A stretch of DNA of 64,000 nucleotides from an archaeon (GTDB lineage: Archaea > Micrarchaeota > Micrarchaeia > Norongarragalinales > UBA97). Where the stretch lies: NCBI GenBank assembly GCA_020057405.1, contig JAGVFW010000002.1, forward strand, positions 1,621 through 65,620, given 5' to 3'. The position numbers and the translations under genes are program-made. Under the pieces are notes generated by a model that searched no databases, had not been told where the DNA came from, and was given only the letters and a program-made list of their open reading frames with translations. The first letter of the stretch is position 1. Each line of letters opens with the position of its first letter. Shown in pieces: positions 5,697 through 46,676 of this stretch.

Positions 5697-5697
5697 A

Positions 5698-22099: not shown

Positions 22100-22116
22100 G
22101 CTTTTCTTGCCCCCCG

Positions 22117-27456: not shown

Positions 27457-29025
27457 TTATTTTCTCTTTAGTATCGTGTAATTGCCGAACTGCGTTACCG
27501 GCGCGAAGTCCTTGCCGATGTAGTTGTACAAGTCGCCCTCAAATTCCGTCACGTAGCACCTGTCGACCTTGCTCATCGGCGAGGTGATGGCAAACTGCGC
27601 GTTGCTTGTGCGAATGTCGTTGATTATCTCCGCCTGCACTGCCGGTGCGCTTGTGATGCCCGGGTAAAGCTGGATGTACGACGATGCCGGGTCGTGGCCG
27701 GTAACCAAATAGAACGAGGCGGCCCCGCTTGCGACGTAAATCTCCTCACCCGGCGCAGCATTTGCACTAATGTATTCGGTAGCCTGCTTGAAATCGTCAA
27801 TCTGGCCCTTTGGAATAGTCATGCCAGCGAACTTTTCAGTCGGCCCAAGGTAGTCGCGGTAAGTGAATGCGACAAGGCTTGCCCCGAGCAAGGCGAAAAA
27901 CGCAAGGTACGCAAACGCCGCGAGGGCAAGCGCCTTTTTGCCACCAGTCGCCTTGGCAAAGCCACCCGCGAGCTTGTAGAGCAGGTAAGCGGCAATGATG
28001 TATGCAAGAAGCATGCTGAAAATCAGGTGGTTGCGGTCTGTGCGGGGATAGACGACCATGTGGAACTGGAAGAGCGCGACTAAAGTTGCAAGCAGCAGCG
28101 TCTTGCCCTCGACTTTGGAGAGCAGCGTGCGGTTGCGGTAAAGGTAGTAGAGCGCAGCGAAGTAGACGAGCAGGACCGCATAGTAGACTGAGTTGATTGC
28201 CGAGCGGTAAACGGATTCAATCGCGAGGCTGGGCGGGATGAGTGAGGCGACTGTCGGGAACGGCAGGCCCCAGCACTGGTGGCTGCCCTGCGTTGCCGAG
28301 CGCACCACCATCATGTCGTACATTCCGGTAAACGAGTTTGTTGCTGTAAAATACCCGACCGTGAGGAGCGGAATGACTGCAGCGGCGGCGAAGAAGAGCT
28401 TGCGGTCCCACAACTGGCCGACAACCGCCTTGACTTTCGGCCAGTTCTTGGCAAGTGCAGTGATTGCAAAATAGACGGTAATTCCCGCAAGCGTGTATGC
28501 GCCGACGTTCTGCTTGAAAAACGCGCTCGCTCCAACAGCGAAGCCGGCCAAAAGCAAGTGGCGCAGCTTGCCTGACTCCTCATTTCGGATTATGAAGTAA
28601 ACCGCGAGGACTTGGAAGAATACTGCCGGCCAGGTGGGCGTCGTGTAGTGCTGGAAGGGAATGCCCCAGATGAGCAAAAGAACCGGGGGCAAAAGCGCGT
28701 AAGGATGCGGCACCAAACGCCGTGCAATGAGGTAGAGGAGCGCGCCTGCGGAGGCGGCAAAGAGCGCCATGATGATGCGGGCGAAAAGAATCTCGTTTGG
28801 CGCAAAGAGGACGTGGACAAGGGCGCCGATTAGAAAGACGCCGGGCGTATAGATGTTCCGCACTTGAGTGTAGAGCACTTCGCCCTGCGAAATCAGCTTT
28901 CCGCTAAGGAGCGCCTGGCCCTCGTCGGTGCCGTCAAACATCTTGTCGACGAAGAACGCTGAGAACGCCAGGGACGCGACTAGCACTAGGAGAGCGACGA
29001 CGACAGGTCTGGAGCCAAGGTCCAT
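27457..29025 (-). CDS. polytopic GT-C glycosyltransferase, PMT/ArnT-like
   Basis: 522 aa, multi-TM. DE motif in the first loop: 'FVDKMFDGTDEGQALLSGKL'. Confidence 0.55.
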   Translation of the reverse strand: MDLGSRPVVVALLVLVASLAFSAFFVDKMFDGTDEGQALLSGKLISQGEVLYTQVRNIYTPGVFLIGALVHVLFAPNEILFARIIMALFAASAGALLYLIARRLVPHPYALLPPVLLLIWGIPFQHYTTPTWPAVFFQVLAVYFIIRNEESGKLRHLLLAGFAVGASAFFKQNVGAYTLAGITVYFAITALAKNWPKVKAVVGQLWDRKLFFAAAAVIPLLTVGYFTATNSFTGMYDMMVVRSATQGSHQCWGLPFPTVASLIPPSLAIESVYRSAINSVYYAVLLVYFAALYYLYRNRTLLSKVEGKTLLLATLVALFQFHMVVYPRTDRNHLIFSMLLAYIIAAYLLYKLAGGFAKATGGKKALALAAFAYLAFFALLGASLVAFTYRDYLGPTEKFAGMTIPKGQIDDFKQATEYISANAAPGEEIYVASGAASFYLVTGHDPASSYIQLYPGITSAPAVQAEIINDIRTSNAQFAITSPMSKVDRCYVTEFEGDLYNYIGKDFAPVTQFGNYTILKRK

Positions 29026-29138: not shown

Positions 29139-30383
29139 ATGCCGGTTATGTACCACAAACGAGAAGACTGCAGGGGCTGCCACAGCACCGGCGTAACTCC
29201 CTTTTTGGATTTGGGAGCCATGCCGTTAGCCGGAGGTTTCCTCACATCCGACCAAGTCGCTGGCGAACGCAAATATCCGCTTGTGCTCTACTACTGCAAA
29301 ACCTGTTCGCTCGTGCAGGTCCTTGACGTCGTCGACGCAGACACGCTCTTCAAGAATTACTTCTACCTCTCGTCAGTCACAAAGACGCTCTCAAGCCACT
29401 TTGCGCAATACGCTGGCGACGTGCACGAACGCTTCCTGACGGAGAAAAACGCCCTTGCAGTTGAGTTCGGCTGCAATGACGGCGTCCTCCTCATGCCTCT
29501 CAAGGAGCTAGGCGTTCGCACAGTCGGTGTCGAGCCGTCCAAAAACGTTTCTGAAATCGCGCGGGCAAAAGGCCTTGACATAATCAACGACTACTTCACC
29601 CCGAAAGTCGCAGGCGAAATTGCCCAAAAGCACGGCCACGCGGACGCAATCCTCGCCAACAACGTTTTTGCCCACATCGACGACCTTGACGCAGTCCTGA
29701 TGGGCGTGACTGACCTGCTAAAGCCCGACGGAGTGTTCGTCTTCGAGGTCCACTACCTGCCAAACCTGCTTGACGGCCTGCAGTACGACTTCTTTTACCA
29801 CGAGCACCTCTGCTACTACTCGCTTCACTCCCTCTCAGTCCTCCTCGGCCGATTCGGCTTGGCCATCTTCGACGCTACGCCAATGGCAATCCACTCGGGT
29901 TCAATCCGCGTGATGGCCTGCCGCAAGGAAAGCGCCAGGCCTGACGAGCCTGCGGTCAAGCAGCTCATGGCTCTTGAGGAATCAAAGGGTCTGGACAAAC
30001 TCGAGACTTACACTGAATTCGCCGACCGCGTCGCCGCGCATCGGACCGAGTTGCGCACGCTTTTGCAAAGTTTCAAGTCAAAAGGCAAGCGCATTGCCGG
30101 CTACGGCGCCTCCGGCCGCGCCAACACGCTCCTAAACTACTGCCAGATAGGCACCGAGACAATCGACTACATCGTCGACGACTCGCCATTGCGCCAGGGC
30201 CACCTCACGCCGGGCACGCACATTCCAGTCAAGCCGGCCTCCGAACTCTCGTCCAACCCTCCGGACGCAATCCTCGTCCTCGCCTGGAGCTACCTTGCAG
30301 AAATCATGGCCCGCCAAAAGGATTTCGCAAAGGCGGGTGGGACTTTCCTCGTGCCGTTTCCAGAACCGGGTGTAGTGAAATGA
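29139..30383 (+). CDS. NDP-hexose C-methyltransferase-like: N-terminal putative Zn-binding domain, class I SAM methyltransferase domain, and C-terminal C-methyltransferase domain (TylCIII/Coq-type)
   Basis: 'CRGCHSTGVTPFLDLGAMPLAGGFL' N-terminal Cys cluster, 'AVEFGCNDGVLL' SAM motif I, and a C-terminal domain of about 100 aa. Paralog of the protein encoded at 37843-39063. The start is taken at ATG 29139. Confidence 0.7.
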   Translation: MPVMYHKREDCRGCHSTGVTPFLDLGAMPLAGGFLTSDQVAGERKYPLVLYYCKTCSLVQVLDVVDADTLFKNYFYLSSVTKTLSSHFAQYAGDVHERFLTEKNALAVEFGCNDGVLLMPLKELGVRTVGVEPSKNVSEIARAKGLDIINDYFTPKVAGEIAQKHGHADAILANNVFAHIDDLDAVLMGVTDLLKPDGVFVFEVHYLPNLLDGLQYDFFYHEHLCYYSLHSLSVLLGRFGLAIFDATPMAIHSGSIRVMACRKESARPDEPAVKQLMALEESKGLDKLETYTEFADRVAAHRTELRTLLQSFKSKGKRIAGYGASGRANTLLNYCQIGTETIDYIVDDSPLRQGHLTPGTHIPVKPASELSSNPPDAILVLAWSYLAEIMARQKDFAKAGGTFLVPFPEPGVVK

Positions 30384-31456
30384 AAGTAGTCGAAATCATC
30401 CAAGGCTATTCCCACGGCGACGGCATCAACAAGGCCGCCGTTTCGATAGCTACTGCCCTCTCACACATCAAGGGCGTAGAAGTCACCCTCATCCACGAGC
30501 GCGGAGTGCCTCCAATGCGCACTGCGGTGCGCGAGACGTTCGTCGGCTCAATCCGCCGGGCAGCGAAAGAGGCGGACATTGTGCATTCCCACATCGGCAC
30601 GGGCGTCTTCAAAGCAAGTGCGGCGAAGCTAGTCAACCCTCGTATCAAGCACGTAACGACTTACAGCGTGATTGCGCCAAAAGAAATCTATGCCAAGTAT
30701 CACTTCACGCTCCTTTTCCACAAGCTCGTCTACGCGCATGGCATTGACGCTGTTGTCGGCATCAGCAAGTACGCCTGCGACGACTTCCACAAGCGCTTCG
30801 GCGGCCACGCGCAGCTCATTTACGACGGCGTTGACCTAAAAGAATTCAAGCCCGACGCGAAGGCCGGCGCAGCTTTCCGGCGCGTCCACGGCATTGGCGC
30901 AGAGAAGACCGTAATCGGATTTGTCTCGCGCTTTGACGCCCACAAAAACCACGCTGCAATCATCCGCGCCCTGCCGAAGCTGCCAAAGGACACTGTCGCG
31001 CTCTTGGGCGGCGTTGGGGGAGGCAAGTTTGACACAATGGCGGAGTGCAAGCAGCTTGCGCACTCGCTTGGCGTTTCCGACCGTGTTGTTTTTGCCGGCT
31101 TCATCCAAGAAAAGGACATGAACGCACTCTACAATTCCATGGACATTCACGCCTTCCCGTCGCTTTGGGAGGGCTTTGGGCTAAGCGTGCTTGAGGCAAG
31201 CGCGGTTGGCAAGCCAACCGTCGGGTTTCCAGTCTATTCAATCAAGGAACTCGTTGGAAGGGTGCCAAACAACGGCATTCTTGCCAAAGACCAGCACGCT
31301 TTCACCTCTGCCCTATCCCGGCTTTCAAGCGACAGCAAGCTTCGGCGAAAGTTCGGCGCAGGAGCGAAGGAATTTGCAAAAGACTTCGCCTGGGAGAAAG
31401 TCGCCATCCGCTACAAGCACCTTTTCGACGGCCTGATGGAGGAACGCGGGCGATGA
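30380..31456 (+). CDS. GT4 glycosyltransferase
   Basis: 'EGFGLSVLEASAVGKPTVGF' GT-B motif. ATGA overlap with the upstream gene. Confidence 0.85.
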   Translation: MKVVEIIQGYSHGDGINKAAVSIATALSHIKGVEVTLIHERGVPPMRTAVRETFVGSIRRAAKEADIVHSHIGTGVFKASAAKLVNPRIKHVTTYSVIAPKEIYAKYHFTLLFHKLVYAHGIDAVVGISKYACDDFHKRFGGHAQLIYDGVDLKEFKPDAKAGAAFRRVHGIGAEKTVIGFVSRFDAHKNHAAIIRALPKLPKDTVALLGGVGGGKFDTMAECKQLAHSLGVSDRVVFAGFIQEKDMNALYNSMDIHAFPSLWEGFGLSVLEASAVGKPTVGFPVYSIKELVGRVPNNGILAKDQHAFTSALSRLSSDSKLRRKFGAGAKEFAKDFAWEKVAIRYKHLFDGLMEERGR

Positions 31457-32538
31457 ACAAACCGGAGGGCGGCAAATTGCGCGTCAACTACGTTCTCGGC
31501 TCGCCAGTGCCGCCAAAGTCTGGCTACGGCAAGTACGCCCTAACAGTGCTTGACGAGCTGACGCACCTCAAAGGCCTTGGCGTCCGCGACATCCGCGCGC
31601 ATTTCCCCCTAAACTTTCCATTCCGAAACATGCTTCTTGACTTTTCAACAACTCCAGTAAAGACGCTTCTGCATTCGCGGGGTGCGATTACCCACGCAAG
31701 CTCCCAAGGCTTGGCTTTCCTAGGCTTGCTTGGAGTGCGGCCGTTTGTCGTCACTGCCTACGACGCCATTCCCTTCGCGCTAAAGGAGGAACGAAAGTCT
31801 CCGGCCAAGTCAGGTCTTCTTGCCATGATGAGGCAGGGCCTGCGTGGCGCCGACGCGATAATCACGATTTCACACTTCAGCAAGCGCGAGCTCGCAAAGC
31901 ACGCCGGTCTTGACGAACGCCGCATCCACATAGCTTACCCCGGCGTTGACCACGCAGTTTTCAAGCCACTGGCGACGGCAAAGCCCGACCTGCGCAAGGT
32001 GCTTTACGTCGGTTCCGAGCAGCCGCGAAAGAATGTTGGCGTCCTTTTGGAGGCGTTTGCAAAAGCACGCAAGAAACTGCCGGGGCTAAAGCTGCTAAAA
32101 GTCGGTTCCCCCCAGTGGCGTGGCGGCCGCGAGGCGTTTTTGGCCAAGGCGCGTGCGCTTGGCGTTGCGGATGCAATCACTTTTGTCGAAGGCCCAACCG
32201 AAGCGGAGCTTGCAGCAATCTACCGCTCTTGTGGCGTGCTCGTTTTCCCGTCGACTTACGAGGGTTTCGGCCTTCCTCCACTTGAGGCAATGGCCTGCGG
32301 CCTGCCCGTCGTGTGCAGCAATGCCGCGTCGTTGCCTGAAGTCGTCGGAAGCGCGGCAATCTCACTAAAGCCCAACGATGTCGACGGCTTTGCCAAAGGC
32401 ATTGTCAGCGTCCTCTCTAAACCCGCAGTCCGCAAGCGGCTAAAGGCCAAGGGCTTCGCGCAGGCGAAGAAGTTTTCGTGGCGCAAAGCTGCGCTTGACA
32501 CTCTTAAAGTCTACGAGTCGCTTGCGCCGAAAAACTAG
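31453..32538 (+). CDS. GT4 glycosyltransferase
   Basis: 'EGFGLPPLEAMACGLPVVCSNAASLPEVVG'. ATGA overlap with the upstream GT4. Confidence 0.85.
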   Translation: MNKPEGGKLRVNYVLGSPVPPKSGYGKYALTVLDELTHLKGLGVRDIRAHFPLNFPFRNMLLDFSTTPVKTLLHSRGAITHASSQGLAFLGLLGVRPFVVTAYDAIPFALKEERKSPAKSGLLAMMRQGLRGADAIITISHFSKRELAKHAGLDERRIHIAYPGVDHAVFKPLATAKPDLRKVLYVGSEQPRKNVGVLLEAFAKARKKLPGLKLLKVGSPQWRGGREAFLAKARALGVADAITFVEGPTEAELAAIYRSCGVLVFPSTYEGFGLPPLEAMACGLPVVCSNAASLPEVVGSAAISLKPNDVDGFAKGIVSVLSKPAVRKRLKAKGFAQAKKFSWRKAALDTLKVYESLAPKN

Positions 32539-33518
32539 ACCCATTTCGTGGCCTTAAGCAGGGCCAAAAGTTCACTATCGCTTAGCATGTGCGTGTTGTT
32601 TGAAGCGTATTCACGGATTTCATTTGCATTTCCCTTGTAGGCACTGCCTTCCTTGTGCGGGGGGATGACGAACTCTTCCTTTTGCTCAACAGCGCGGTAC
32701 ATTTCCTCCTCGCTGACAAGCACTTCGTGAATCTTCTCGCCCGGCCTGATGCCCACCATCTTGGTCGGATAGCCGGCCTTCCCGGTAACAGCCTTGCCCA
32801 TCACTTCAGCAAGTTGCGTGATGCGGCAGGCGCTCATCTTCTTGACGAAAATCTCGCCGCCCTTGCCCTCTTCCATTGCCTTGAAGACAAGCTTGATGGC
32901 GTCAGGGAGCGGCAGGAGAAAGCGCGTCATGCGAGCGTCGGTGATGGGCAGGGGCTTTTTCTCGTCGAGTAACTTCTTGAAGAACGGAATCACGCTTCCG
33001 CGGCTGCCTACGACGTTGCCGTAGCGCACGCACATGAACCGCGTCTTCCAGTGCGGAGAGTTCATGCTGATGAACACTTTTTCCTGCATGGCCTTTGACA
33101 TTCCCATGGCATTGACTGGCTTGACTGCCTTGTCTGTGCTCACGCCCACCACGCGGTCGACGCCAGCCGCGATTGCCGCCTTTGCAACATTATGCGCGCC
33201 CAAGATGTTAGTCTTGACTGCCTCAAGCGGGTGGCTCTCGCAGCTTGGAACGTGCTTTAGTGCAGCAGCGTGGAAGACGACGTCAACGCCTGCCATCGCC
33301 TCGCTAACGCGTTCGAAGTCGCGCACGTCGCCGATGACATACTCTAGTCCAGCGTTGCCGTCAAACTCCTGCGCCATGCGGTATTGCTTGTCCTCGTCGC
33401 GGCTAAAGATGACGATTGACTCCGGGGAAAAGGGCGCGAGCTGGCCCACAATCTGGTGGCCGAAGCTGCCGGTGCCCCCTGTGACCATGATGCGCTTTCC
33501 CTTGAGAAAAGATGCCAT
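32535..33518 (-). CDS. UDP-N-acetylglucosamine 4,6-dehydratase-like (CapD/PseB/FlaA1 family, Polysacc_synt_2)
   Basis: 'IMVTGGTGSFGHQIVGQL' and 'IFSRDEDKQYRMAQEF' are hallmarks of PseB/CapD short dehydratases. Confidence 0.8.
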   Translation of the reverse strand: MASFLKGKRIMVTGGTGSFGHQIVGQLAPFSPESIVIFSRDEDKQYRMAQEFDGNAGLEYVIGDVRDFERVSEAMAGVDVVFHAAALKHVPSCESHPLEAVKTNILGAHNVAKAAIAAGVDRVVGVSTDKAVKPVNAMGMSKAMQEKVFISMNSPHWKTRFMCVRYGNVVGSRGSVIPFFKKLLDEKKPLPITDARMTRFLLPLPDAIKLVFKAMEEGKGGEIFVKKMSACRITQLAEVMGKAVTGKAGYPTKMVGIRPGEKIHEVLVSEEEMYRAVEQKEEFVIPPHKEGSAYKGNANEIREYASNNTHMLSDSELLALLKATKWV

Positions 33519-33525
33519 AACAAAT

Positions 33526-34527
33526 TCAACTCCGTTTCTGCTTAAAGAGTTTGCCCTTGATGGTGCGCACGCCGTAAGCGGGCAAAAGCCACTTCTCCAG
33601 TTCGGCTACGGGAACTTTTCGCCCCGCCCCCAGTTTCCGCCGCCGTGAAATTATCCACGGCAGCATCAAAAACGCGTCAATCCTTGCCTTCACGCGCGCA
33701 ACGTTGGCGGTAGCAAGCCACCAAACGCTCATTGGGATTTCGAAAATGATGTAGTAAGCCAACATTGGCACAAGCAACTTGAGCGGAAACTCCGAGAGTG
33801 CAAAGAGCAGGCGGTTTCTGTGGCCCAAGTAAGTCGCGCGATAGCTAGTCTTGCCGTAAGACACTGAACCCGCGTGAAACGCCCGCACTTGGGGCACGAG
33901 CATGCACTTCCAACCGGCCGCGCGCGCACGCCAGGCGAGGTCGATGTCTTCCAAGTAAGCGCCGAACGCTTCCTCAAAATAGCCAATCTCGTCAAGCATC
34001 TGGCGTCGATAGAGCGTCGCCCCGCCGTAGCCGCCGAAAATTTCTACCGGCTTCTTGCCAAACTGTCCGCGGTTCTCCTCGCCACCGCCGACGTTAGCGC
34101 CGTAGCCGCTGCGGTCAACTGAAACGCCGGCTGCGTCAATTACGCTGGGTTCGCTTGAGCGGACAAGGAGGGGCACGGCCATTCCGACGCGGCTGTCCTT
34201 CTCGGCAGCCGCAACCATTTCAGAAATGACTTTGGGTTCAAGCGCCACGTCGTTAGTGACTGAAATGACGTACTTGCCTTTCGCCGCCCGCAGCCCGATG
34301 TTCATGCCGGCTGCAAAGCCTAAGTTAGTGGGATTGCGGATGACTTTCGTTTGCGGAAAGTTTTTCTTGACGTACGCGAGACTGTCGTCGGTGCTCGCGT
34401 TGTCGACAAGGAGGACTTGGAGCGGCCTGTAAGTCTGCTTGCCAAGGGCCGGCAGGCTTTTTTCAAGAAGTTTTCTGCCGTTCCAATTGAGTACAACGGC
34501 AGTTACTTCGGGGTGCTTGGGTTTCAT
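33526..34527 (-). CDS. GT2 glycosyltransferase
   Basis: 'VTAVVLNWNGRKLLEKSLPALGKQTYRPLQVLLVDNASTDDS'. Confidence 0.85.
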   Translation of the reverse strand: MKPKHPEVTAVVLNWNGRKLLEKSLPALGKQTYRPLQVLLVDNASTDDSLAYVKKNFPQTKVIRNPTNLGFAAGMNIGLRAAKGKYVISVTNDVALEPKVISEMVAAAEKDSRVGMAVPLLVRSSEPSVIDAAGVSVDRSGYGANVGGGEENRGQFGKKPVEIFGGYGGATLYRRQMLDEIGYFEEAFGAYLEDIDLAWRARAAGWKCMLVPQVRAFHAGSVSYGKTSYRATYLGHRNRLLFALSEFPLKLLVPMLAYYIIFEIPMSVWWLATANVARVKARIDAFLMLPWIISRRRKLGAGRKVPVAELEKWLLPAYGVRTIKGKLFKQKRS

Positions 34528-34556
34528 TTCCTTTCACCACACCGGGCTCCGCGGGC

Positions 34557-35690
34557 TCACTGGCCTATCGAGGGTGTTGAATCAGAAATAGTATCGGATG
34601 CAGAAGCCGGTTGGGCTTGCGCCATCGGTTGAATTGCGTTTTGTGCTGCCGGCGGGTCGATTGCCTCGACCTTCAAGATAATTCCGCCCTTCTTTGCCGG
34701 GTCGTGGGGAACGTAAACCGCGCTTGCGTCGGTGTTCCACCTGCGGTAGACGTAGCAGCGCTTGCAGAAGGAGTCGTCCTTGAAGTCTTTTTCGCGGAAT
34801 GGCTCGAGGTTCTTCCACACTTGCTTGGCGTCGCTCTCAAGGAGGTTGCCGTAGAACTTGTTGGGGTGGTGGCAGCACGGGGCCGCGTCGCCAGTCCAGT
34901 TGACGAAGAGGATGCCGGTGTTCATGTAGGGGCAGATGTCGCGCTGCTTTGAGAGCCAGTTGCGCCAGCTGTGCTTTCGGCTGTAGAAGACCGTCTCGAC
35001 GGGCACGCCGTACTTGGCTTCAAATGCCGGGAGCGCGTCGAGGAACGTTTGCGTCTCTTCGGGCGACAGGCTCGGCACTTTATGGCCGTGCAAGTCGTAG
35101 ATGGGTTCGAGGTTGATGCCGTTGATGCCCGCTTGCTTTGCAATCTTTAGTATGCCCTCGAATTGCTTGAAGTTAAGCGATGAGAGGACGACGCTGAAAA
35201 ACACTTTCTTGTCAGCCTTTGCGGCGCATATGCGCAGCACGCCCTCAAGGAGGGGGCCGAAGTGGGAGTTGCGCCGGATTGCCTCGAATTCCTCACTAGC
35301 GGGAAAGTCGAATGAGATGACAATGTTATGCACCTTGCTCGCCATTATCCTGCCAATCGTCTTTTCGTCAAGGAACGTGCCATTTGTAGTGAATGTGACT
35401 TCGAGGCCCATGTCTGCGGCGTAGTTGGCCATGTCAAAGAGCTGCGGGTGAAGCGTCGGCTCGCCCCAGCCGGTCAAGTTGATTGCCTTTAGCTTGTTGA
35501 ACTTGCTTAGAATGGTCTTGAAGTCATCTAGGGGCATGCGGCCGAGGCCCTTTGAGAAGCTCTTTCGCGGGCACATGACGCAGTCGAGGTTGCAAATGTT
35601 GGTCGGCTCAAGGTGGAGGATGATGGGCTCCTCTAGGGGCTCGTAAAGCGCGTACTTCGCCTGTTCCACTGGATTGAGTTGATAGGCCAT
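34557..35690 (-). CDS. radical SAM enzyme with a C-terminal SPASM/twitch Cys-rich domain
   Basis: 'LEPTNICNLDCVMCPRKSF' contains CxxxCxxC. C-terminal auxiliary-cluster cysteines lie in '...DAAPCCHHPNKFYGNLL...SFCKRCYVY'. Embedded among glycosyltransferase genes. Confidence 0.8.
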   Translation of the reverse strand: MAYQLNPVEQAKYALYEPLEEPIILHLEPTNICNLDCVMCPRKSFSKGLGRMPLDDFKTILSKFNKLKAINLTGWGEPTLHPQLFDMANYAADMGLEVTFTTNGTFLDEKTIGRIMASKVHNIVISFDFPASEEFEAIRRNSHFGPLLEGVLRICAAKADKKVFFSVVLSSLNFKQFEGILKIAKQAGINGINLEPIYDLHGHKVPSLSPEETQTFLDALPAFEAKYGVPVETVFYSRKHSWRNWLSKQRDICPYMNTGILFVNWTGDAAPCCHHPNKFYGNLLESDAKQVWKNLEPFREKDFKDDSFCKRCYVYRRWNTDASAVYVPHDPAKKGGIILKVEAIDPPAAQNAIQPMAQAQPASASDTISDSTPSIGQ

Positions 35691-35749
35691 TGCAAGAAGT
35701 ATTTGCGTTAATGGTCTTTTTTAAGCCCTGCATTTCGGCACTGCTGCTT

Positions 35750-36262
35750 TTAATCAAGGAAAGGAATCCGCACGGACTTTAGGCGCGGCAAGAGCCGCAA
35801 AGCGAGCCGGAATCCATAGGCGAAAATGAAGAGGAGCACTAAGTCGTTTAGGAAATCAAGGTAGATGTCAATCGAAGAGTGCATTACTCCCGTGAACCAG
35901 TAGCCGACGTTGTGCAGGACAACTGCGGCAAGAAAGAGCGGCATCAGCTGCTCGAGGTCAAGTTTTGTCGCGTCGCGGACGAAAAGAAACAGGCACAGCG
36001 TGATGAGGCCGTGCGCGAGGCCGTGAAAGACGATATCAAAAGCCGCATACGGTGAGATTGATGCGATTGCGAGCACGCGGCTAACGCCGTCAGCTGCAAA
36101 CACCGCGTTGAAGAACTTCATGTAGCCTTCAGTCGCGCCAACGCCAATCAACACATAGAAAATCGCGACTTTCGCCCAAATCGCAAGCTGGATGACGAGG
36201 TAGAAGCGCGTTAGGCGGTTAAACTGCTCGCCGCTCATGCCGAAGTCTTTAGCTGAAAACAA
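35750..36262 (-). CDS. small 4-TM membrane protein, possibly a GtrA-like lipid-linked sugar translocation factor
   Basis: 170 aa with four hydrophobic helices. The position beside GT2/RfbF genes is reminiscent of GtrA-family proteins. Weak inference. Confidence 0.35.
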   Translation of the reverse strand: MFSAKDFGMSGEQFNRLTRFYLVIQLAIWAKVAIFYVLIGVGATEGYMKFFNAVFAADGVSRVLAIASISPYAAFDIVFHGLAHGLITLCLFLFVRDATKLDLEQLMPLFLAAVVLHNVGYWFTGVMHSSIDIYLDFLNDLVLLFIFAYGFRLALRLLPRLKSVRIPFLD

Positions 36263-36294
36263 GTCAATTCACCTAAAACAAATTTGACTGGGCG

Positions 36295-37062
36295 CTACCA
36301 CTTGACCCAGGGCGCATGCCCGCTTGCAAACTCGGTGTTTAGCAGGTCTAGCTCGCGCACGGTGTCGACGCAGCGCCAGTAGCCCGAGTGGGGAAATGCC
36401 ATGAGCTGGCCGTCGCGCGCAATCTTTTCAAGCGGCTCGCGCTCTAGGATAGTCGCATCGCCGCCGATGTAGCGAAGGACGGATTTCTTCATCGCAAAGT
36501 AACCGCCATTGATTTTGCCCTCGCCTTCAACTGGCTTTTCTGAAAACGACTTGACGCGGCTACCCTCAAGCTTGAGGCTGCCGAACTTTGAGGGCGGGTT
36601 CACAGCAGTGACCGTCGCAATCTTGCCGTGCTGCTTGTGGAACTTTAGGAGTGCGCCAAGGTCAACGTCAGCCACGCCGTCTCCGTAAGTGAGGAAAAAG
36701 TCTTCCTGCAAGTAAGGCGCCGCGCGCTTGAGCCGTCCGCCGGTCATGGTGTTTAAGCCCGTGTCGACGAGCTTGACGTTCCAGTCGTCAACGGCCTTGC
36801 CCGCAAGCAGTTCGACCTTGTTTTTCTTGACGTCGACTTCGATGTCGTTGTTGATGTAAGCGTAGTTGAGGAAGTATTCCTTGATTGACTCGCCCTTGTA
36901 GCCAAGGAGGATGAGGAAATCACGCACGCCGTAGTGGCTGAACGTCTTCATGATGTGCCACAGGATGGGCTTGCCGCCGACCTCGACCATGGGCTTTGGC
37001 TTGATGATGGTCTCTTCCTTGAGACGAGTTCCAAGACCGCCGGCCAGAATTACCGCTTGCAT
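36295..37062 (-). CDS. rfbF: glucose-1-phosphate cytidylyltransferase
   Basis: 'MQAVILAGGLGTRLKEETIIKPKPMVEVGGKPILWHIMKTFSHYGVRDFLILLGYKGESIKEYF' is the diagnostic RfbF/DdhA signature. Confidence 0.85.
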   Translation of the reverse strand: MQAVILAGGLGTRLKEETIIKPKPMVEVGGKPILWHIMKTFSHYGVRDFLILLGYKGESIKEYFLNYAYINNDIEVDVKKNKVELLAGKAVDDWNVKLVDTGLNTMTGGRLKRAAPYLQEDFFLTYGDGVADVDLGALLKFHKQHGKIATVTAVNPPSKFGSLKLEGSRVKSFSEKPVEGEGKINGGYFAMKKSVLRYIGGDATILEREPLEKIARDGQLMAFPHSGYWRCVDTVRELDLLNTEFASGHAPWVKW

Positions 37063-37149
37063 GATATGATATAGTCGGCCGAAATTAATAAACCGGCAGG
37101 AAAGCCCAGTGGCTCCTTGGTTGCATGGCTGGGATTAAGGTCTGCTGGC

Positions 37150-37488
37150 TCAAGGCGTGATTTTGAGCACTGCGCCTACTTGCTGCTTGAGTTGCGGCAA
37201 GTCCTTCTCTACGGTAGCCCAGACGCTTTCGATGTCCACGCCGAGATAGTTGTGGATGAGCTTGTCGCGCATGCCCGCAATGTCCTTCCAAGGCACTTGC
37301 GCGTGCTTTTTCTTGAGTTCGGGTGAGACTTGCTTGCAGGCCTCGCCAATGATTTCGATTTGCCTGATGACCGCGTCCTGGATGAGCGAATTTCCCTTGA
37401 ATTCTTTTTCGGAAATGTCGGCCGTATAGTCTTCAATCTTGCCTATGGAGTCAAGGATGTGCTTCAGGTATACCGAATTGGCTTTCAA
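37150..37488 (-). CDS. hepT: HepT-like toxin (DUF86 nucleotidyltransferase substrate-binding protein)
   Basis: 'RDKLIHNY' matches the Rx4HxY HepT catalytic motif. 112 aa, 4-nt overlap with the upstream MNT gene. Confidence 0.85.
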   Translation of the reverse strand: MKANSVYLKHILDSIGKIEDYTADISEKEFKGNSLIQDAVIRQIEIIGEACKQVSPELKKKHAQVPWKDIAGMRDKLIHNYLGVDIESVWATVEKDLPQLKQQVGAVLKITP

Positions 37489-37775
37489 GCGTAGAGCACC
37501 TTGACTTCATCAGTAATTCTCTTTGCAATGTAGGGGCTGATGGACTTGTCTGTCAGAAGGTCTATTTTCTTGCCAGTTTTCTGAGCCAAGTCGTTCTCTA
37601 TGCGCACGAGCTCAAGCAGGCTTTTGGGTGCATCAAATTTGACGATGAGGTCAATGTCGCTATCCTTCCTTTCATCACCGCGCGCATGCGAGCCGAACAA
37701 CGAAATTTTTCGCGCGCCGTAACTAGATAGCACGGACACTATTTGCTTTGTCAGCAATTTTTTCATTTGCGTCAA
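37485..37775 (-). CDS. mnt: MNT-type minimal nucleotidyltransferase antitoxin
   Basis: 'LFGSHARGDERKDSDIDL' matches the GSx9-10DxD nucleotidyltransferase motif. 96 aa, upstream of and overlapping hepT. Confidence 0.85.
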   Translation of the reverse strand: MTQMKKLLTKQIVSVLSSYGARKISLFGSHARGDERKDSDIDLIVKFDAPKSLLELVRIENDLAQKTGKKIDLLTDKSISPYIAKRITDEVKVLYA

Positions 37776-37842
37776 CCTTTAGTATAACTTAGCGGCTGAG
37801 GCTATTAAAACCAGCTTTTCCCGTAGCCAAAAGCAAAGCGCT

Positions 37843-39063
37843 TCAGGCGACAATGCGTGGTTCGGGAACCGGAATGATGAACTTCCCGCCCCCAGCGCGG
37901 TAGGTGGAGAGCTGAGTCATAATCTCGTCAGCCAAGTTCCAGGCCAAAATGAGCACGTAGTCCGGCTTTCGCGCCATAATCTCTTCAGGAGGCACGACAG
38001 GCACGTGGTTGCCTGGCGCGTAGAGCCCCTGCTTTAGCGGGCTCTTGTCGGCAATGAAGTCAATAGTCTCCTTTCCGAGGCCGCAGTAGTTTAGAAGCGT
38101 GTTCCCCTTGGCAGCAGCGCCATAAGCCGCAACAGTCTTTCCCTGCGACTTGATTTCCCGCATGAGGCCAACGAGGCCATCCTTCAGGCTGTGAACCTTG
38201 GCGGCAAAAGCGTTCATCGCCGAAATGTCTGCAAGTCCGCTTGCGCGTTCCATCTCAAGAAGCGCGTCGACCGACTGTCCCTGCCGCGCCCCACCTGCAG
38301 TCTTCTTGACAAAAAGCAAAAGCGAGCCGCCGTGCATTGTCGTGCGGCGTGCCTCGACAATCACCATGCCGTGCATGTCAAAGAGCCGCACGAGTGGCGC
38401 GACGGCAAAGTAGGACAAGTGCTCGTGGTAAGTCGTGTCAAATTCCAGCTTGCCAACCATGTCGGCAAGGTAGGGAAACTCCAAAACGAGTGTGCCGTCG
38501 TCCGCAAGGAGGGCGCCGACGCCGTTAAGCAGGCCGTGCAGGTCGGGCACGTGGGCAAAGACATTGGTGCCAATGATTGCCGCCGCCCGGCCGCGCTCGA
38601 CCGCAATCGCTTTGGCGCTCTCCTCGTTGAAGAACTCGCAAATCGTCTCAACGCCGTTCTCGACCGCAATCTTCGCGACATTCTCGGCTGGCTCAACGCC
38701 AAGCGCTTTGATGCCGGTGCCAGCGAAGTTCTTCAAAAGCGTGCCGTCGTTGCTTGCAAACTCGACTACGAGGCTGCCCTTGGGTACCATTTCGACAATT
38801 TCGGCGGCAAGCTGTACGAAGTGAGCAGAGAGAGTTTTTGAAGTTGACGAAACGTAGAGGTAATTTCTAAACATCTTCTCAGGCGGTACGACGTAGCCGA
38901 GCTGCACGAGGCCGCAGACGGGGCACAGGCACAAGTCAAGGGGGAACTCCTCTTCCTTTCCCGTTAGCTGGCTTTCGCTAAGAAAAGAGTTTGCAAGCGG
39001 GGTCGGGCCGAGCTCGAGGAATTTCTCAACCTTGTCGCTTGAGCAAATGCGGCACGTAACCAT
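37843..39063 (-). CDS. NDP-hexose C-methyltransferase-like (paralog of the protein encoded at 29139-30383)
   Basis: 'CRICSSDKVEKFLELGPTPLANSFL...CPVCGLVQLGYVVPPEKMFRNYLYVSSTSKTLSAHF' is collinear with 'CRGCHSTGVTPFLDLGAMPLAGGFL...CKTCSLVQVLDVVDADTLFKNYFYLSSVTKTLSSHF'. The start is taken at ATG 39063, preceded by AAGGA. Confidence 0.7.
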   Translation of the reverse strand: MVTCRICSSDKVEKFLELGPTPLANSFLSESQLTGKEEEFPLDLCLCPVCGLVQLGYVVPPEKMFRNYLYVSSTSKTLSAHFVQLAAEIVEMVPKGSLVVEFASNDGTLLKNFAGTGIKALGVEPAENVAKIAVENGVETICEFFNEESAKAIAVERGRAAAIIGTNVFAHVPDLHGLLNGVGALLADDGTLVLEFPYLADMVGKLEFDTTYHEHLSYFAVAPLVRLFDMHGMVIVEARRTTMHGGSLLLFVKKTAGGARQGQSVDALLEMERASGLADISAMNAFAAKVHSLKDGLVGLMREIKSQGKTVAAYGAAAKGNTLLNYCGLGKETIDFIADKSPLKQGLYAPGNHVPVVPPEEIMARKPDYVLILAWNLADEIMTQLSTYRAGGGKFIIPVPEPRIVA

Positions 39064-39070: not shown

Positions 39071-40414
39071 TCAGCCCCTGCCAATTGGGAAAACTTGCGC
39101 CTTGCTATAATCCGCACCGTCAAGCAAGCGCCTGCAGTCGACGATGACCGGCGTTTTCATTAGCTTGATGAACTCATCCTGCGGGAGCTTGAACTCCGGC
39201 CACGCGGTCAAAATCATTGCAACGTCAGCGCCAGTTAGGGCCGCCTGCGGCGTCGCTGCAAACGAGAGGTTCGTTTGCGCGCCCAGTTCCCGCGCGCCAT
39301 TTGCCTGCGCTTGCGGGTCGGCTGCAACTACGGTTGCCTCTTTGGCAAGTAGCATTGGAATGATGTAGAGCGACGCCGACTCGCGCACGTCATCAGTAAA
39401 CGGCTTGAATGCCAGGCCGAGGACAGCAACTTTCTTTCCGGCCAGGGACCCGCCGCACGCTTTTTGCGCAAGTGCCACGGCCGCCTTTCGCGCCCGCGCG
39501 TTTTCCTCAAGAACCGCCTCAAGCAATGGCGCGCCAAAGCCGGCTTCCTTTGCGTAAGCCGCAAGTGCCGCAACGTCTTTGGGGAAGCACGAGCCGCCAA
39601 AACCGGCGCCTGTTCGCAAGTAAGAGGTCCAGCCTAGGGTGGGCTTGCCGTCGCTTGTGATGCGCCTGTCAAATTCGACTGACTTTAGGACTTCGATGGC
39701 ATCCACGCCCGGATGCTTCTCCGCAACGCGAGCAATCTCGTTGCTGTAGGAAATGAGCGTCGCAAACAAGCTGTTGGCGGCGTACTTGATGAGTTCCGCA
39801 GTTTCAAGCCCGTAGTGAAGCATTGGTGCTTTGAGGGGCGCGTAGATTTCTTCCGCAGTCTTGCCGCTCTTGGCGTCCAACTCGCCGATGACCACGCGGT
39901 CGGCGTTGGCAAAGTCCTCGACGGCATTTCCCTCGCGCAGGAATTCGGGCGTCATGCACAGGCCGAAGTCCTTTCCGGCCTTTTTGCCGCTAGCTTTTTC
40001 GATTGCCGGCAAGACAAGCTTGCGGGTAGTGCCGGGCAGCACCGTGCTTCGGATGATTACTAGCTTGTAGCCGGTCGTCTTTGCGATTGCCGCGCCGATT
40101 TGGCCCGAGACCGCCTCGATTTGGCTCAAGTCAATGCTGCCGTCTTGCCGCGAGGGAGTGCCGACGCACACGAGCACTGCATCGGCTGGCTCGCAGGCTG
40201 CCTTCAGGTCGGTTGTTGCAGTGAGTTTGTCTGACTTGACTGCCGCCATGAGCACTTCGGCCAGCCCCGGTTCGCTGATGTGGGGCTTGCCTTCGGCAGT
40301 CATCTTGACAACTGCTTCCCGTGAGTCGACACAAACGACTTCGTGGCCAAGTTTTGCCAAGCACGCGCCAGTGACAGTGCCGACATAACCCGTGCCGATG
40401 ACTGCAATCTTCAT
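39071..40414 (-). CDS. nucleotide-sugar dehydrogenase (UDP-glucose/GDP-mannose dehydrogenase family; possibly UDP-ManNAc/UDP-GlcNAc 6-dehydrogenase)
   Basis: 'MKIAVIGTGYVGTVTGACLAKLGHEV', 'CVGTP' and 'GFGGSCFPKD' catalytic-Cys region. The start is taken at 40414. Confidence 0.8.
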   Translation of the reverse strand: MKIAVIGTGYVGTVTGACLAKLGHEVVCVDSREAVVKMTAEGKPHISEPGLAEVLMAAVKSDKLTATTDLKAACEPADAVLVCVGTPSRQDGSIDLSQIEAVSGQIGAAIAKTTGYKLVIIRSTVLPGTTRKLVLPAIEKASGKKAGKDFGLCMTPEFLREGNAVEDFANADRVVIGELDAKSGKTAEEIYAPLKAPMLHYGLETAELIKYAANSLFATLISYSNEIARVAEKHPGVDAIEVLKSVEFDRRITSDGKPTLGWTSYLRTGAGFGGSCFPKDVAALAAYAKEAGFGAPLLEAVLEENARARKAAVALAQKACGGSLAGKKVAVLGLAFKPFTDDVRESASLYIIPMLLAKEATVVAADPQAQANGARELGAQTNLSFAATPQAALTGADVAMILTAWPEFKLPQDEFIKLMKTPVIVDCRRLLDGADYSKAQVFPIGRG

Positions 40415-40419
40415 TTTCT

Positions 40420-41469
40420 TCACTTCCACTCCGTCTTTGCCCACTCGAGCATGCGGGCAAGGCCGGCTTTCAGTACAATCTTTGGTTCGTAGCCGAGTTT
40501 GCGGACTTTTGCCAAGTTTGGCGCGCGGCGCTTGGGGTTGTCGGCCAAGTAATCCGCTTCAGCACTCTTCTTGAACTCAACAGGCAGGCCGCCGGAAACT
40601 TCGGAAACTGCTTTTGCAAACTCAGCCATCGAAATTTCCTGCATGTCGTTGCCGACGTTGAACGGCTCTCCGCTGTGATCGCTTAGAAACACTCGCAAAA
40701 AGCCATCAATGGCGTCCGCAATGTAGCAGAAGCTTCGCGTGTCGGTGCCAGTGCTAAGGAGCACGAGCGGCTTTCCGTCAACCGCGTTGGCGATTAAGTC
40801 GGGCACCACCCTGCCGTCGTCCTTTCGCATGCCAGGGCCGTAGACGTTGAAGGGCCGCACAATTTTGCTCGGCACGCCGTACTGTTGGTTGAAGTAAACG
40901 CATAGCGTCTCGCCGTAGCGCTTTGACTCGTCGTAGCACGCGCGGGGCCCAGTGCAGGAGACAAAGCCGCGGTAGTCTTCTGCCGTCGGGATGTTTGCCG
41001 CGTCGGGGTCGCCGTAAATCTCGCTTGAGCTGAAGTAAAGCAGGCTCTTGACGCCGTGTTCGCGTGAGTACTCAAGCAAATGCCGTGTTCCAACGACGTT
41101 GACGTCCATAGTGTCAATCGGGTACTTGCGGTAGGTAATCGGGCTTGCGATGCCGGCAGCGTGGATGATGTAATCCGCATTTACGCCGGCAGGCAGGGGC
41201 TTTCGCACGTCGTGGCTAAGGAAAGTGAAGAAGGGCTTTCCCTTTAAGTGGTCAAGGCGGTTTGGAATGCCCCCTGCCATGTTGTCTAGTGCGACGATGT
41301 TGACTGCTACGCCAGCGTCATTTAGGGCGGCGAGCGTGTCAACCATGTAGGAGCCGAGCATGCCAACTGCACCAGTGACTAGGACGGTCTTGCCGTCTAG
41401 CTTGCGTGCCATGGGCAGGATGCTCTTTGCGATTGCTGCGCAGTCTTCGACAACGATTCGGGAAACCAT
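40420..41469 (-). CDS. NAD-dependent nucleotide-sugar epimerase/dehydratase (extended SDR)
   Basis: 'KTVLVTGAVGMLGSYMV' plus a YxxxK motif. The alternative start MARKLDGK at 41412 is more canonical. Confidence 0.8.
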   Translation of the reverse strand: MVSRIVVEDCAAIAKSILPMARKLDGKTVLVTGAVGMLGSYMVDTLAALNDAGVAVNIVALDNMAGGIPNRLDHLKGKPFFTFLSHDVRKPLPAGVNADYIIHAAGIASPITYRKYPIDTMDVNVVGTRHLLEYSREHGVKSLLYFSSSEIYGDPDAANIPTAEDYRGFVSCTGPRACYDESKRYGETLCVYFNQQYGVPSKIVRPFNVYGPGMRKDDGRVVPDLIANAVDGKPLVLLSTGTDTRSFCYIADAIDGFLRVFLSDHSGEPFNVGNDMQEISMAEFAKAVSEVSGGLPVEFKKSAEADYLADNPKRRAPNLAKVRKLGYEPKIVLKAGLARMLEWAKTEWK

Positions 41470-45965: not shown

Positions 45966-46676
45966 TTAGTGCCCTTCACTTTCAGCCACTAGCGTGGTTG
46001 CGCGCAAAAGGCTGGGGAAAGTTCCCGCGTCGGTCCAGTAGCCTTTGAGTTGGGCGTGGGCGAGCTTGCCTTGCTTGATGTAGTGGTTGTTGACATCCGT
46101 AATCTCGAGCTCGCCGCGGGCGCTGGGCTTGAGCGTCTTGACGATTTGAAAGACCGTCTTGTCGTAAACGTAGATGCCCGTGACGGCGAAGTTGCTCGCC
46201 GGTGACTTCGGCTTTTCGTCAATGCGGGTTATCTTCCCGCCCTCAATTACGGGCACGCCGAAGCGATGTGGGTCCGGAACTTCCTTGATGAAGACAAGCG
46301 CGCCGCCCTTGAAGGCCTTGATTGCCGGGCCGATGTCGTCCTGCACGATGTTGTCGCCTAGGATGACGACGCAATTGTCATCGCCGACGAAGTCAGCGCC
46401 AAGGCCGAGCGCCTGCGCGATGCCGCCCGCTTCGTCCTGCACGCGGTAGGTAAAGTGCATGCCGAATTCCTTGCCACTGCCTAGAAGCTTGAGAAAGTCG
46501 CCAGCGCTCTCTGCGCCAGTGACGATGAGCACGTTAGTCACGCCTGCCTTTTTCAGCGTCTGGATGGGGTAGTAAATCATGGGCTTGTCGTGGACTGGCA
46601 GCAAGTGCTTGTTGGTGACTCTAGTGATTGGAGCTAGGCGCGAGCCAGTACCGCCAGCAAGAATGATTCCCTTCAT
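45966..46676 (-). CDS. rmlA: glucose-1-phosphate thymidylyltransferase (short form)
   Basis: 'MKGIILAGGTGSRLAPITRVTNKHLLPVHDKPMIYYPIQTL' is the RmlA signature. Confidence 0.85.
   Translation of the reverse strand: MKGIILAGGTGSRLAPITRVTNKHLLPVHDKPMIYYPIQTLKKAGVTNVLIVTGAESAGDFLKLLGSGKEFGMHFTYRVQDEAGGIAQALGLGADFVGDDNCVVILGDNIVQDDIGPAIKAFKGGALVFIKEVPDPHRFGVPVIEGGKITRIDEKPKSPASNFAVTGIYVYDKTVFQIVKTLKPSARGELEITDVNNHYIKQGKLAHAQLKGYWTDAGTFPSLLRATTLVAESEGH

Follow-up and report, generated by a model that had tools for sequence, protein, structure and literature searches.

Two clades of sugar C-methyltransferases with distinct gene neighbours in a predicted AglB-linked glycan island of a Micrarchaeota archaeon

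We analysed a stretch of 64,000 nucleotides from a Micrarchaeota genome (assembly GCA_020057405.1, contig JAGVFW010000002.1, positions 1,621 to 65,620; hereafter the window) with respect to two paralogous genes for sugar C-methyltransferases that depend on S-adenosylmethionine (SAM), here termed MT-A and MT-B. The two genes mark the centre of a glycosylation island of ~50 kb (about 1.5-52.5 kb of the window), at whose end the oligosaccharyltransferase AglB with its WWDYG motif is encoded. We find that MT-A and MT-B belong to separate clades that have different conserved gene neighbours: a PseB-like nucleotide-sugar dehydratase in the case of MT-A and the glucose-1-phosphate cytidylyltransferase RfbF in the case of MT-B. 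On balance, we think that the island would make two C-methyl-branched 6-deoxy sugars that differ from each other, each by a route of its own.

Both proteins contain a zinc-binding domain (PF08421), a class I SAM domain and the C-terminal domain of C-methyltransferases (PF08484), with E-values from 1e-19 to 1e-59, and both exceed the gathering cut-offs (PF08421, 70.7/79.0 bits; PF08484, 188.9/200.0 bits). Aligned with each other over their whole length, they are 41% identical (E 6e-115), which confirms an initial annotation of this DNA that had described two paralogs of this architecture. Full-length matches were observed to MtmC (4rv9; E 3e-92 for MT-A and about 1e-103 to 1e-104 for MT-B) as well as to KijD1 (5t64) and TcaB9 (3ndi; E 1e-76 to 1e-86 for the latter two), and the identity to these three enzymes is 35-41%. 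Residues were mapped through the TcaB9 alignment with a 2-residue chain offset. The four zinc cysteines of TcaB9 are aligned in MT-A and in MT-B (positions in Table 1) and are kept across essentially all of the 119 + 119 closest database homologues. The same holds for the residues that are reported by Bruender et al. 2010/2012 to bind the sugar and to act in catalysis (TcaB9 His181, Tyr222, Glu224 and His225, together with Tyr76), which are kept in both window proteins and in about 119 of 119 members per clade. MT-A and MT-B have the sequence YHEH, as does MtmC; TcaB9 and KijD1 have YDEH. Given the conserved zinc and catalytic residues and the full-length family matches, the two proteins do not group with O- or N-methyltransferases, a possibility that the initial annotation had raised and that we can rule out. 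Judged by these alignments, both proteins are intact representatives of the TylCIII/TcaB9/MtmC family, whose enzymes use SAM to C-methylate nucleoside diphosphate (NDP)-4-keto-sugars. The family has C3- and C5-methylating members; NovU is in the same profile of nucleotide-sugar C-methyltransferases (PMC7725333, supplement). A natural fusion of 657 amino acids, P0066, joins a C-methyltransferase to a short-chain dehydrogenase/reductase (SDR) of the RmlD/epimerase type.

When comparing MT-A to MT-B, we find that they are less similar to each other than to proteins of other organisms. The best matches are 50-54% identical to MT-A (70% for one orthologue) and 50-55% identical to MT-B, whereas the two proteins share only the 41% given above. 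Furthermore, 119 of the 119 proteins in each match list score higher against their own paralog than against the other, and a neighbour-joining tree (no bootstrap) assigns MT-A and MT-B to two distinct sister clades, to which the actinomycete enzymes are external. Members of the family are very numerous (>5,000 and >7,900 matches at E <= 1e-20 among 8,000 candidates scored), and the few named members of both clades come mostly from archaeal metagenome-assembled genomes (MAGs) of Thermoplasmata, Aenigmarchaeota, Micrarchaeota and Nanoarchaeia. A recent tandem duplication as the origin of the pair was rejected, since each paralog is closer to proteins of other organisms than to its partner. The arrangement with two methyltransferases is recurrent, as a second archaeal contig of 133.5 kb (Logan SRR22388089 contig 14984, with genes for a histone, RadA and STT3; our loci L091 and L093) also carries both clades. 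On this contig the two C-methyltransferase genes are 17 kb apart and each has its own partners, namely PseB-like, RmlD-like, PMT_2 and AglB genes for clade A and RfbF, SDR and RmlD-like genes for clade B.

With regard to MT-B, a gap of 780 bp separates the gene from RfbF, which is encoded on the same strand and scores above the TIGR02623 equivalog cut-off for glucose-1-phosphate cytidylyltransferases (300.25 bits; score in Table 1). An RfbF-like gene occurs within 6 kb of the MT-B-like gene in 16 of 34 metagenome loci, most of the others being short contigs; if only loci with 1.5 kb or more of sequence on either side are counted, L091 and L092 included, the figure is 8/9. The order in L091 is RfbF, SDR, MT-B-like gene and RmlD-like SDR. 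The cassette of an uncultured archaeon (L092) starts with RfbF (53% identical; TIGR02623 429 bits) and an SDR that is closest to cytidine diphosphate (CDP)-glucose 4,6-dehydratase, and continues with an MT322-like methyltransferase, a cupin, an RmlD-like SDR, an MT-B-like gene (54%), a glycosyltransferase (GT) like GT4_43244 of the window and an Rmd-like SDR. The zinc-ribbon methyltransferase encoded at 42283-43191 of the window has a 27% identical homologue inside this cassette and is a candidate O-methyltransferase of the CDP-sugar gene set. The synteny of clade B with RfbF would fit a CDP route like that to CDP-cereose in Bacillus cereus. In a further locus, L100 (metagenome Ga0194132_10002438, 2486-11218), two MT-B-like genes (44% and 47%) lie downstream of one RfbF-like gene, together with an RmlA-like gene.

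The surroundings of MT-A differ from this. In each of the five clade-A loci whose flanks are long enough (the window, L093, L094/95, L130 and L131), the MT-A-like gene has a PseB-like gene, 43-56% identical to that of the window, at a distance of no more than ~2.2 kb, and no RfbF-like gene adjoining it. The PseB-like protein of the window (32535-33518) reaches 342.5 bits with the PseB model, under the cut-off of 407.75, and it matches 4,6-dehydratases of uridine diphosphate (UDP)-GlcNAc (4j2o, FlaA1 2gn4 and CapE) with E-values from 1e-70 to 3e-79. From the sequences, it is the likely source of the 4-keto-6-deoxy substrate for MT-A. L093 and L131 have a common gene order of AglH-like, PseB-like, RmlD-like, MT-A-like, PMT_2 (on the minus strand), GT2, GT4 and STT3. 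L081, a groundwater metagenome locus with the 70% identical orthologue of MT-A, keeps the order of the window (GT2, GT2, PMT_2 on the minus strand, MT-A, GT4, GT4). PMT_2 adjoins the clade-A gene in L081, L093 and L131 and lies within 3 kb of it in L130. The latter locus (Logan SRR7615342, 6355-10742) combines a clade-A C-methyltransferase with FdtA, a DegT aminotransferase, a hexapeptide acetyltransferase and a PseB-like SDR, which suggests that its organism may make a C-methylated 3-acetamido-type deoxysugar. The initial annotation had treated the two methyltransferases as partners in one CDP pathway. This does not agree with their separate clades and different conserved neighbours; the CDP link is supported for MT-B by the synteny of RfbF in its relatives, whereas clade A adjoins PseB-like genes and never RfbF in the loci examined.

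We propose that both sugars would be methylated by the established mechanism of the family, in which the active-site His would deprotonate the carbon beside the 4-keto group and the resulting enolate would attack the methyl group of SAM. In the route of MT-A, the PseB-like dehydratase would form UDP-2-acetamido-2,6-dideoxy-4-ketohexose, which MT-A would C-methylate and a reductase would convert to the complete sugar. The transfer may then be carried out by the two GT4 enzymes whose genes are translationally coupled to MT-A, by the adjacent PMT_2 enzyme of the GT-C type, or by both. In the route of MT-B, RfbF would supply CDP-glucose, and a 4,6-dehydratase for it, which is not recognisable in the window, would turn it into CDP-4-keto-6-deoxyglucose as the substrate of MT-B. 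The cupin epimerase and the Rmd- or RmlD-like reductase would complete the sugar, the zinc-ribbon methyltransferase might O-methylate it, and the GT4 enzyme encoded at 43244-44401 would transfer it.

The proposed route of MT-B can be compared to a known pathway in B. cereus. The cereose/cillose operon BC3358-61 is reported to have four genes, for a CDP-glucose synthase, a CDP-glucose 4,6-dehydratase, a SAM C-methyltransferase and a 4-reductase (Li et al., J Biol Chem 2017, cited in PMC6976573; PMC7725333). CDP-cereose/cillose is listed as an established pathway, and the supplement places Q81B31 in the profile of nucleotide-sugar C-methyltransferases (PMC7725333). A CDP-linked C-methyl sugar, which the initial annotation had put forward as a type not yet described in archaeal N-glycans, is thus already established as such, and only the archaeal setting would be new. 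As in B. cereus, the glucose-1-phosphate cytidylyltransferase of the window adjoins a TcaB9-family C-methyltransferase of ~407 amino acids, with SDR reductase candidates nearby, and the archaeal MT-B-like cassettes L091 and L092 hold all four functions. Unlike in B. cereus, the window has no recognisable CDP-glucose 4,6-dehydratase and the genes are split by a toxin-antitoxin pair. Furthermore, the B. cereus pathway decorates a spore glycoprotein, whereas the window holds an AglB-linked island that also encodes the zinc-ribbon methyltransferase, the cupin and a radical SAM enzyme.

The actinomycete enzymes TylCIII, MtmC, KijD1 and TcaB9 share with MT-A and MT-B the three-domain fold family, the zinc site and the Tyr/His/Glu/His residues. 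They make antibiotic deoxysugars from 4-keto-2,6-dideoxy or 3-amino sugars linked to deoxythymidine diphosphate (dTDP), whereas the window appears to encode an archaeal surface glycan with probable substrates linked to CDP and, as N-acetylhexosamine (HexNAc), to UDP. A sugar that is both C- and O-methylated, CDP-vinelose of the bacterium Azotobacter vinelandii, is reported in literature from the 1960s to be CDP-linked 6-deoxy-3-C-methyl-2-O-methyl-L-talose, with genes that are reportedly not defined; this sugar matches the gene set of RfbF, a C-methyltransferase and an extra SAM methyltransferase in the window. Among archaea, the Agl pathway of Haloferax volcanii includes AglB and a dolichol phosphate (Dol-P)-mannose branch with AglD/AglS, and its AglP methylates an oxygen of a hexuronic acid. 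The window resembles this pathway in its AglB-anchored island, its pairs of GT2 and PMT_2-type genes and its SAM methyltransferases. In contrast to the O-methylation by AglP, MT-A and MT-B come from a family of C-methylating enzymes that work on NDP-sugars.

The third subject of our analysis is the radical SAM protein encoded between RfbF and the PseB-like gene, which the initial annotation had labelled a radical-SAM/SPASM enzyme. Both Pfam domains are matched and the radical SAM motif CX3CX2C is present at C33/C37/C40, but the SPASM match is weak (33.3 bits) and the only C-terminal cysteines are C253, C272, C273, C309 and C312, i.e. five of the seven canonical SPASM cysteines. The seven-Cys motif CX9-15GX4C...CX2CX5CX3C...C is absent from the protein, which has no CX5CX3C. 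The pattern of five cysteines is invariant in 44 relatives; as CX18-GX4C...CX2C, it would fit a Twitch-type domain with one auxiliary cluster, like that of BtrN, and not a full SPASM domain. The last ~60 residues (318-377; window 34557-34736) form a tail that is rich in Ala, Gln, Pro and Ser and is predicted to be disordered (predicted local distance difference test, pLDDT, < 50). Like BtrN (4m7t), DesII (8hzv) and BlsE (7vob), the protein has a radical SAM core with a C-terminal Fe-S domain (Foldseek E 1e-9 to 7e-15); its sequence identity to them is only 16-19%, and the matches to peptide maturases are just as good.

An exhaustive HMMER search of 1.8 billion representatives gave seven proteins with E <= 1e-30, namely the protein itself, one 64% fragment and proteins at about 26-33%. 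Beyond the assemblies of its own lineage, the protein thus has a single close family. Glycan clusters hold four of the four nearest relatives. For instance, an orthologue of ~87% identity from a groundwater metagenome (L085/L086), which belongs to the same 90%-identity cluster, is found in the same order of membrane protein, radical SAM, GT2 and PseB-like gene as in the window. In L084, a 63% identical homologue adjoins a cupin gene and a homologue of GT4_43244 that is 65% identical, and in L087 and L089 relatives at 31-32% lie among GTs, ManC/PMM, an NTP-transferase, a GHMP kinase and STT3. The initial annotation had considered that the protein could be a sulfatase or peptide maturase; because its nearest relatives lie in glycan clusters, this was not borne out. 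With respect to anaerobic sulfatase-maturating enzymes (anSME) and maturases of ribosomally synthesised and post-translationally modified peptides (RiPPs), the protein reaches the cut-off of no curated family, and it has neither a sulfatase nor a precursor peptide as neighbour. It has no N-terminal RiPP recognition element (RRE), since CX3CX2C begins at residue 33. The lack of room for an RRE and of such neighbours makes a glycan-related radical reaction plausible.

Upstream of the radical SAM gene lies the gene for a membrane protein of 170 amino acids that has no Pfam match even at E <= 1 and no NCBIfam match. This position is conserved in L085, where a partial orthologue is 56% identical; a model from the single sequence (AF2) has five helices at low confidence (pLDDT 66.5). 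In an operon with RfbF, the membrane protein, GT2 and the PseB-like SDR, the radical SAM/Twitch enzyme may oxidise, epimerise or dehydrate a sugar or glycan intermediate by radical chemistry. Such a reaction, which would be its most likely role, is the weakest inference of our model. A bolder version, that the protein and its membrane partner found an uncharacterised radical class dedicated to archaeal surface glycans, which would here oxidise or dehydrate CDP-glucose or a glycan-bound sugar and thereby replace the absent CDP-glucose 4,6-dehydratase or add a new modification, strikes us as doubtful. A natural fusion of 636 amino acids, P0125, joins a radical SAM protein that is 28% identical to that of the window to a short-chain dehydrogenase. 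Together, the fusions P0066 and P0125 are a hint that small-molecule (sugar) substrates undergo coupled redox reactions.

Several observations weigh against our model, some of them concerning the methyltransferases and others the radical SAM protein. For the methyltransferases, the informative contexts are few (five loci for clade A, two plus the window for clade B). The nucleotide and the regiospecificity (C3 vs C5) are not readable from the sequences of MT-A and MT-B, and every solved homologue (MtmC, KijD1 and TcaB9) uses dTDP-sugars. Between MT-B and RfbF, a toxin-antitoxin pair is inserted, and RfbF apparently has a TATA-like element of its own (TTTATTAA, ~25-33 nt upstream of its ATG). 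The RfbF-rich metagenome loci fall outside clade B in the neighbour-joining tree without bootstrap, so that the link to RfbF is shared by a broader section of the family. The best score in the window with the CDP-glucose 4,6-dehydratase model TIGR02622 is 139.8 bits against a cut-off of 278.45, and the SDRs that adjoin RfbF in L091, L092, L096 and L099 have their best counterpart in the window at only ~30% identity. These points bear on a canonical route of the TylCIII type, in which one or both methyltransferases would act on dTDP-4-keto-6-deoxyglucose from RmlA/RmlB to yield dTDP-3-C-methyl-6-deoxyhexoses, and RfbF and the PseB-like dehydratase would serve unrelated sugars. The dTDP-sugars used by the solved homologues and the missing CDP-glucose 4,6-dehydratase are in its favour, and clade-A locus L130 carries FdtA, DegT and acetyltransferase genes typical of dTDP-sugar routes. 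RmlB exceeds its equivalog cut-off, with RmlA-, RmlC- and RmlD-like genes in the same island, which speaks for the dTDP route and also against two separate routes to other nucleotide sugars. As the window thus contains a complete supply of dTDP-4-keto-6-deoxyglucose, the dTDP route stays a serious rival. However, the synteny of the relatives in both clades points to RfbF or PseB-like partners and not to RmlA/RmlB, and the rml genes of the window are 8-17 kb away from the methyltransferases; overall, we consider the dTDP route unlikely. The model of the initial annotation, in which both C-methyltransferases, RfbF and the radical SAM protein work on one CDP-linked sugar (e.g. a doubly methylated or radical-modified CDP-deoxyhexose), seems to us more improbable still. 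It draws on the location of all four genes within 10 kb, on RfbF as a true cytidylyltransferase and on the two MT-B-like genes with one RfbF in L100. What stands against it is the separate clade of MT-A with PseB-like neighbours and no adjoining RfbF in 5/5 loci, as well as the location of MT-A on the opposite strand, in its own operon with two GT4 genes, a block that is conserved in L081 without the RfbF block. The contig with L091 and L093 likewise keeps the clades 17 kb apart with separate partners.

For the radical SAM protein, the rival explanation is that it is no sugar enzyme and merely happens to lie in the island; it would then modify a lipid or act in the maturation of a protein, peptide or cofactor. 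No NCBIfam model is above its cut-off for this protein; the nearest is the uncharacterised family of tungsten-cofactor oxidoreductase maturases, which is also the nearest named family for its 44 relatives (up to E 9e-82). The AF2 model of the protein (pLDDT 82.7) matches SuiB, DesII, CteB, BlsE, SkfB, viperin, anSME and BtrN about equally (TM ~0.6). The RiPP maturases SuiB and CteB are at the top of the fold matches, and the fold search of the PDB does not discriminate between peptide maturases and sugar radical SAM enzymes, whose scores are similar. The best PDB match by sequence is the archaeal lipid enzyme GDGT-MAS, and the more distant homologues (L002-L080; bacterial) lie beside B12-radical SAM proteins, unknown proteins, hexapeptide transferases and methyltransferases, and not beside sugar genes, a context that says little about the window protein. 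On the other hand, the protein has no N-terminal RRE domain, has only five C-terminal cysteines, unlike anSME or SPASM maturases, and reaches no family cut-off. GTs or NDP-sugar genes flank each of its four closest relatives, and the gene itself is tightly packed between RfbF and GT2. A role outside sugar chemistry is therefore, in our estimate, somewhat unlikely.

We next describe the island as a whole (Table 1). The ORF map and domain scans revealed many GT2 and GT4 genes, three pairs of PMT_2 and GT2 genes and several SDRs, together with a DegT aminotransferase, RmlA-like, cupin, RmlB, an RmlD-like reductase, an AglH-like GT (PF00953) and STT3/AglB; NucS and a KaiC/RadB-like gene lie downstream of the island. 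AglB, NucS and the homologues are the basis for an archaeal origin of the DNA. These include the components of an archaeal AglB-dependent N-glycosylation locus, i.e. STT3/AglB with WWDYG, an initiating PF00953 GT and multiple GTs, and the region is, as predicted from its genes, the core of an archaeal AglB-linked glycan island. Domain scans also recovered RfbF, the PseB-like dehydratase, the GT4, GT4 and GT2 genes, the radical SAM gene and the zinc-ribbon methyltransferase where the initial annotation had placed them. It had said nothing of the toxin-antitoxin pair, the membrane protein of 170 amino acids, the C-terminal domain with five cysteines, and the genes for UDP-glucose 6-dehydrogenase and a UDP-glucuronate decarboxylase-like SDR upstream of MT-B.

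Table 1. Coordinates of MT-A, MT-B and further genes of the glycosylation island (window positions; UGDH, UDP-glucose 6-dehydrogenase; UXS, UDP-glucuronate decarboxylase; rSAM, radical SAM)
Feature	Position	Strand	Remarks
RmlD-like NDP-4-keto-6-deoxyhexose reductase	21179..22138	-	TIGR01214 219.8 bits vs cut-off 224
PMT_2-family GT-C glycosyltransferase	27457..29025	-	Pfam PF13231; divergent to MT-A
MT-A, NDP-hexose C-methyltransferase, clade A	29139..30383	+	Zn C11/C14/C53/C56; Y74, H179, Y220, E222, H223
GT4 glycosyltransferase	30380..31456	+	Start overlaps MT-A stop codon; L081 orthologue 83% identical
Second GT4 of MT-A operon	31453..32538	+	Domain scan
PseB/FlaA1/CapE-like NDP-HexNAc 4,6-dehydratase (SDR, PseB/FnlA-like)	32535..33518	-	Polysacc_synt_2 344 bits
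GT2 glycosyltransferase, same operon as radical SAM gene	33526..34527	-	Pairing with rSAM gene kept in L085/L086
Radical SAM enzyme, Twitch-like 5-Cys C-terminal Fe-S domain	34557..35690	-	Pfam Radical_SAM + SPASM
Small multi-helix membrane protein, 170 aa	35750..36262	-	Between RfbF and radical SAM gene
RfbF, glucose-1-phosphate cytidylyltransferase (CDP-glucose)	36295..37062	-	TIGR02623 343.8 bits
HepT (HEPN) toxin	37150..37488	-	PF01934 E 6e-30; RDKLIHNY motif
MntA nucleotidyltransferase antitoxin	37485..37766	-	PF18765 + PF01909
MT-B, NDP-hexose C-methyltransferase, clade B	37843..39063	-	Zn C4/C7/C47/C50; Y68, H171, Y212, E214, H215
UDP-glucose 6-dehydrogenase (UGDH, AglM-like)	39071..40444	-	TIGR03026 408 bits > cut-off 189.8
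UDP-glucuronate decarboxylase-like SDR (UXS-like)	40420..41469	-	PDB 2b69, 4gll (UXS) E 4e-61
Zn-ribbon class I SAM methyltransferase	42283..43191	-	CPAC...CVAC ahead of Methyltransf_23; PDB matches generic only
GT4 glycosyltransferase (GT4_43244)	43244..44401	+	35% identical in L092 with MT-B-like gene; 65% in L084 with rSAM homologue
Rmd/GMD-like SDR	44445..45458	+	PDB 2pk3 (GDP-6-deoxy-D-lyxo-4-hexulose reductase) E 2e-63; L092 homologue 37% identical
Short RmlA-like glucose-1-phosphate thymidylyltransferase	45966..46676	-	TIGR01207 251 bits < cut-off 360
Cupin, RmlC/FdtA-like NDP-4-keto-sugar epimerase/isomerase	46749..47222	+	Pfam; homologues in L091, L092, L084
RmlB, dTDP-glucose 4,6-dehydratase	47232..48197	+	TIGR01181 432 bits > cut-off 365
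AglB/STT3 oligosaccharyltransferase	48261..51320	+	WWDYG at residue 708

Two candidate reductases are found in the island. The RmlD-like protein is the top window match in BLAST to the reductases that adjoin MT-A-like and MT-B-like genes elsewhere. The Rmd/GMD-like SDR reaches neither the gmd cut-off nor that of CDP-glucose 4,6-dehydratase; it is a candidate 4-reductase of an NDP-4-keto-6-deoxyhexose, or possibly the missing dehydratase. The toxin-antitoxin pair MntA/HepT (37150-37766, minus strand) fills the gap of 780 bp from MT-B to RfbF. The start and stop codons of its two genes overlap by 4 nt and the local GC content is lower (0.53); the pair is an insertion and stands outside the sugar pathway. 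The UGDH gene overlaps the UXS-like SDR gene by 25 nt (39071-41469, minus strand), and both are transcribed in the same direction as MT-B, upstream of which they lie. Their predicted functions imply UDP-xylose as the product of a separate branch of the island.

The three pairs of a PMT_2 GT-C gene with an adjacent GT2 gene are located at 1522-3508, 24192-26465 and 26516-29025. They resemble pairs of a Dol-P-sugar synthase and an outer-face transferase (the logic of AglD/AglS), which suggests that several sugars come from lipid-phosphate donors. A second nucleotide-sugar block (3403-8847) contains a gene of the UDP-glucose/GDP-mannose dehydrogenase family, an NTP-transferase, an SDR, DegT and a GDP-fucose-synthase-like SDR; the best score of this DegT aminotransferase is RfbH-like (268 bits, under the cut-off). 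On the minus strand at 13560-21114 are genes for a LamG-domain protein of 960 amino acids, an S8 subtilase of 1080 amino acids and a protein of 484 amino acids with a weak acidic-repeat match. This stretch is strongly GC-skewed and GC-poor (0.41 at 18-20 kb vs ~0.57 elsewhere), and its proteins may be secreted or surface glycoprotein substrates, or the stretch may be acquired DNA. An Rfam scan detected no RNA genes in the window. A scan for bacterial promoters and terminators found terminator-like sites at chance level, and its promoter model is bacterial and unsuited to archaea.

The C-methyltransferases described here are new members of a well-understood family, and a CDP-linked C-methyl sugar is known in bacteria. 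The new elements would be the AglB-linked context in an archaeon, the occurrence together of two clades that have different partners, a C-methylated 6-deoxy-HexNAc as a possible product and a glycan-associated lineage of Twitch radical SAM proteins. We know of no archaeal glycan that contains a C-methyl-branched sugar, and a C-methylated 6-deoxy-HexNAc matches, to our knowledge, no described sugar. A literature search of incomplete coverage, which makes it a weak negative, turned up neither branched or C-methyl sugars nor radical SAM enzymes in connection with archaeal glycosylation. As the enzymology of C-methyltransferases is well established, the advance would be in archaeal glycobiology and not in mechanism.

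Lastly, our analysis offers two testable pairs of enzyme and substrate, clade B with CDP-4-keto-6-deoxyglucose and clade A with the product of the PseB-like UDP-HexNAc dehydratase. It also flags a small lineage of radical SAM proteins that is associated with glycan clusters. Judging from the encoded proteins, the surface of this archaeon probably carries branched sugars of a kind that is known in bacteria and has not yet been reported in archaea. Together with the many homologues in archaeal MAGs (DPANN lineages and Thermoplasmata), the methyltransferase genes predict that C-methyl-branched sugars would be widespread on archaeal surfaces.

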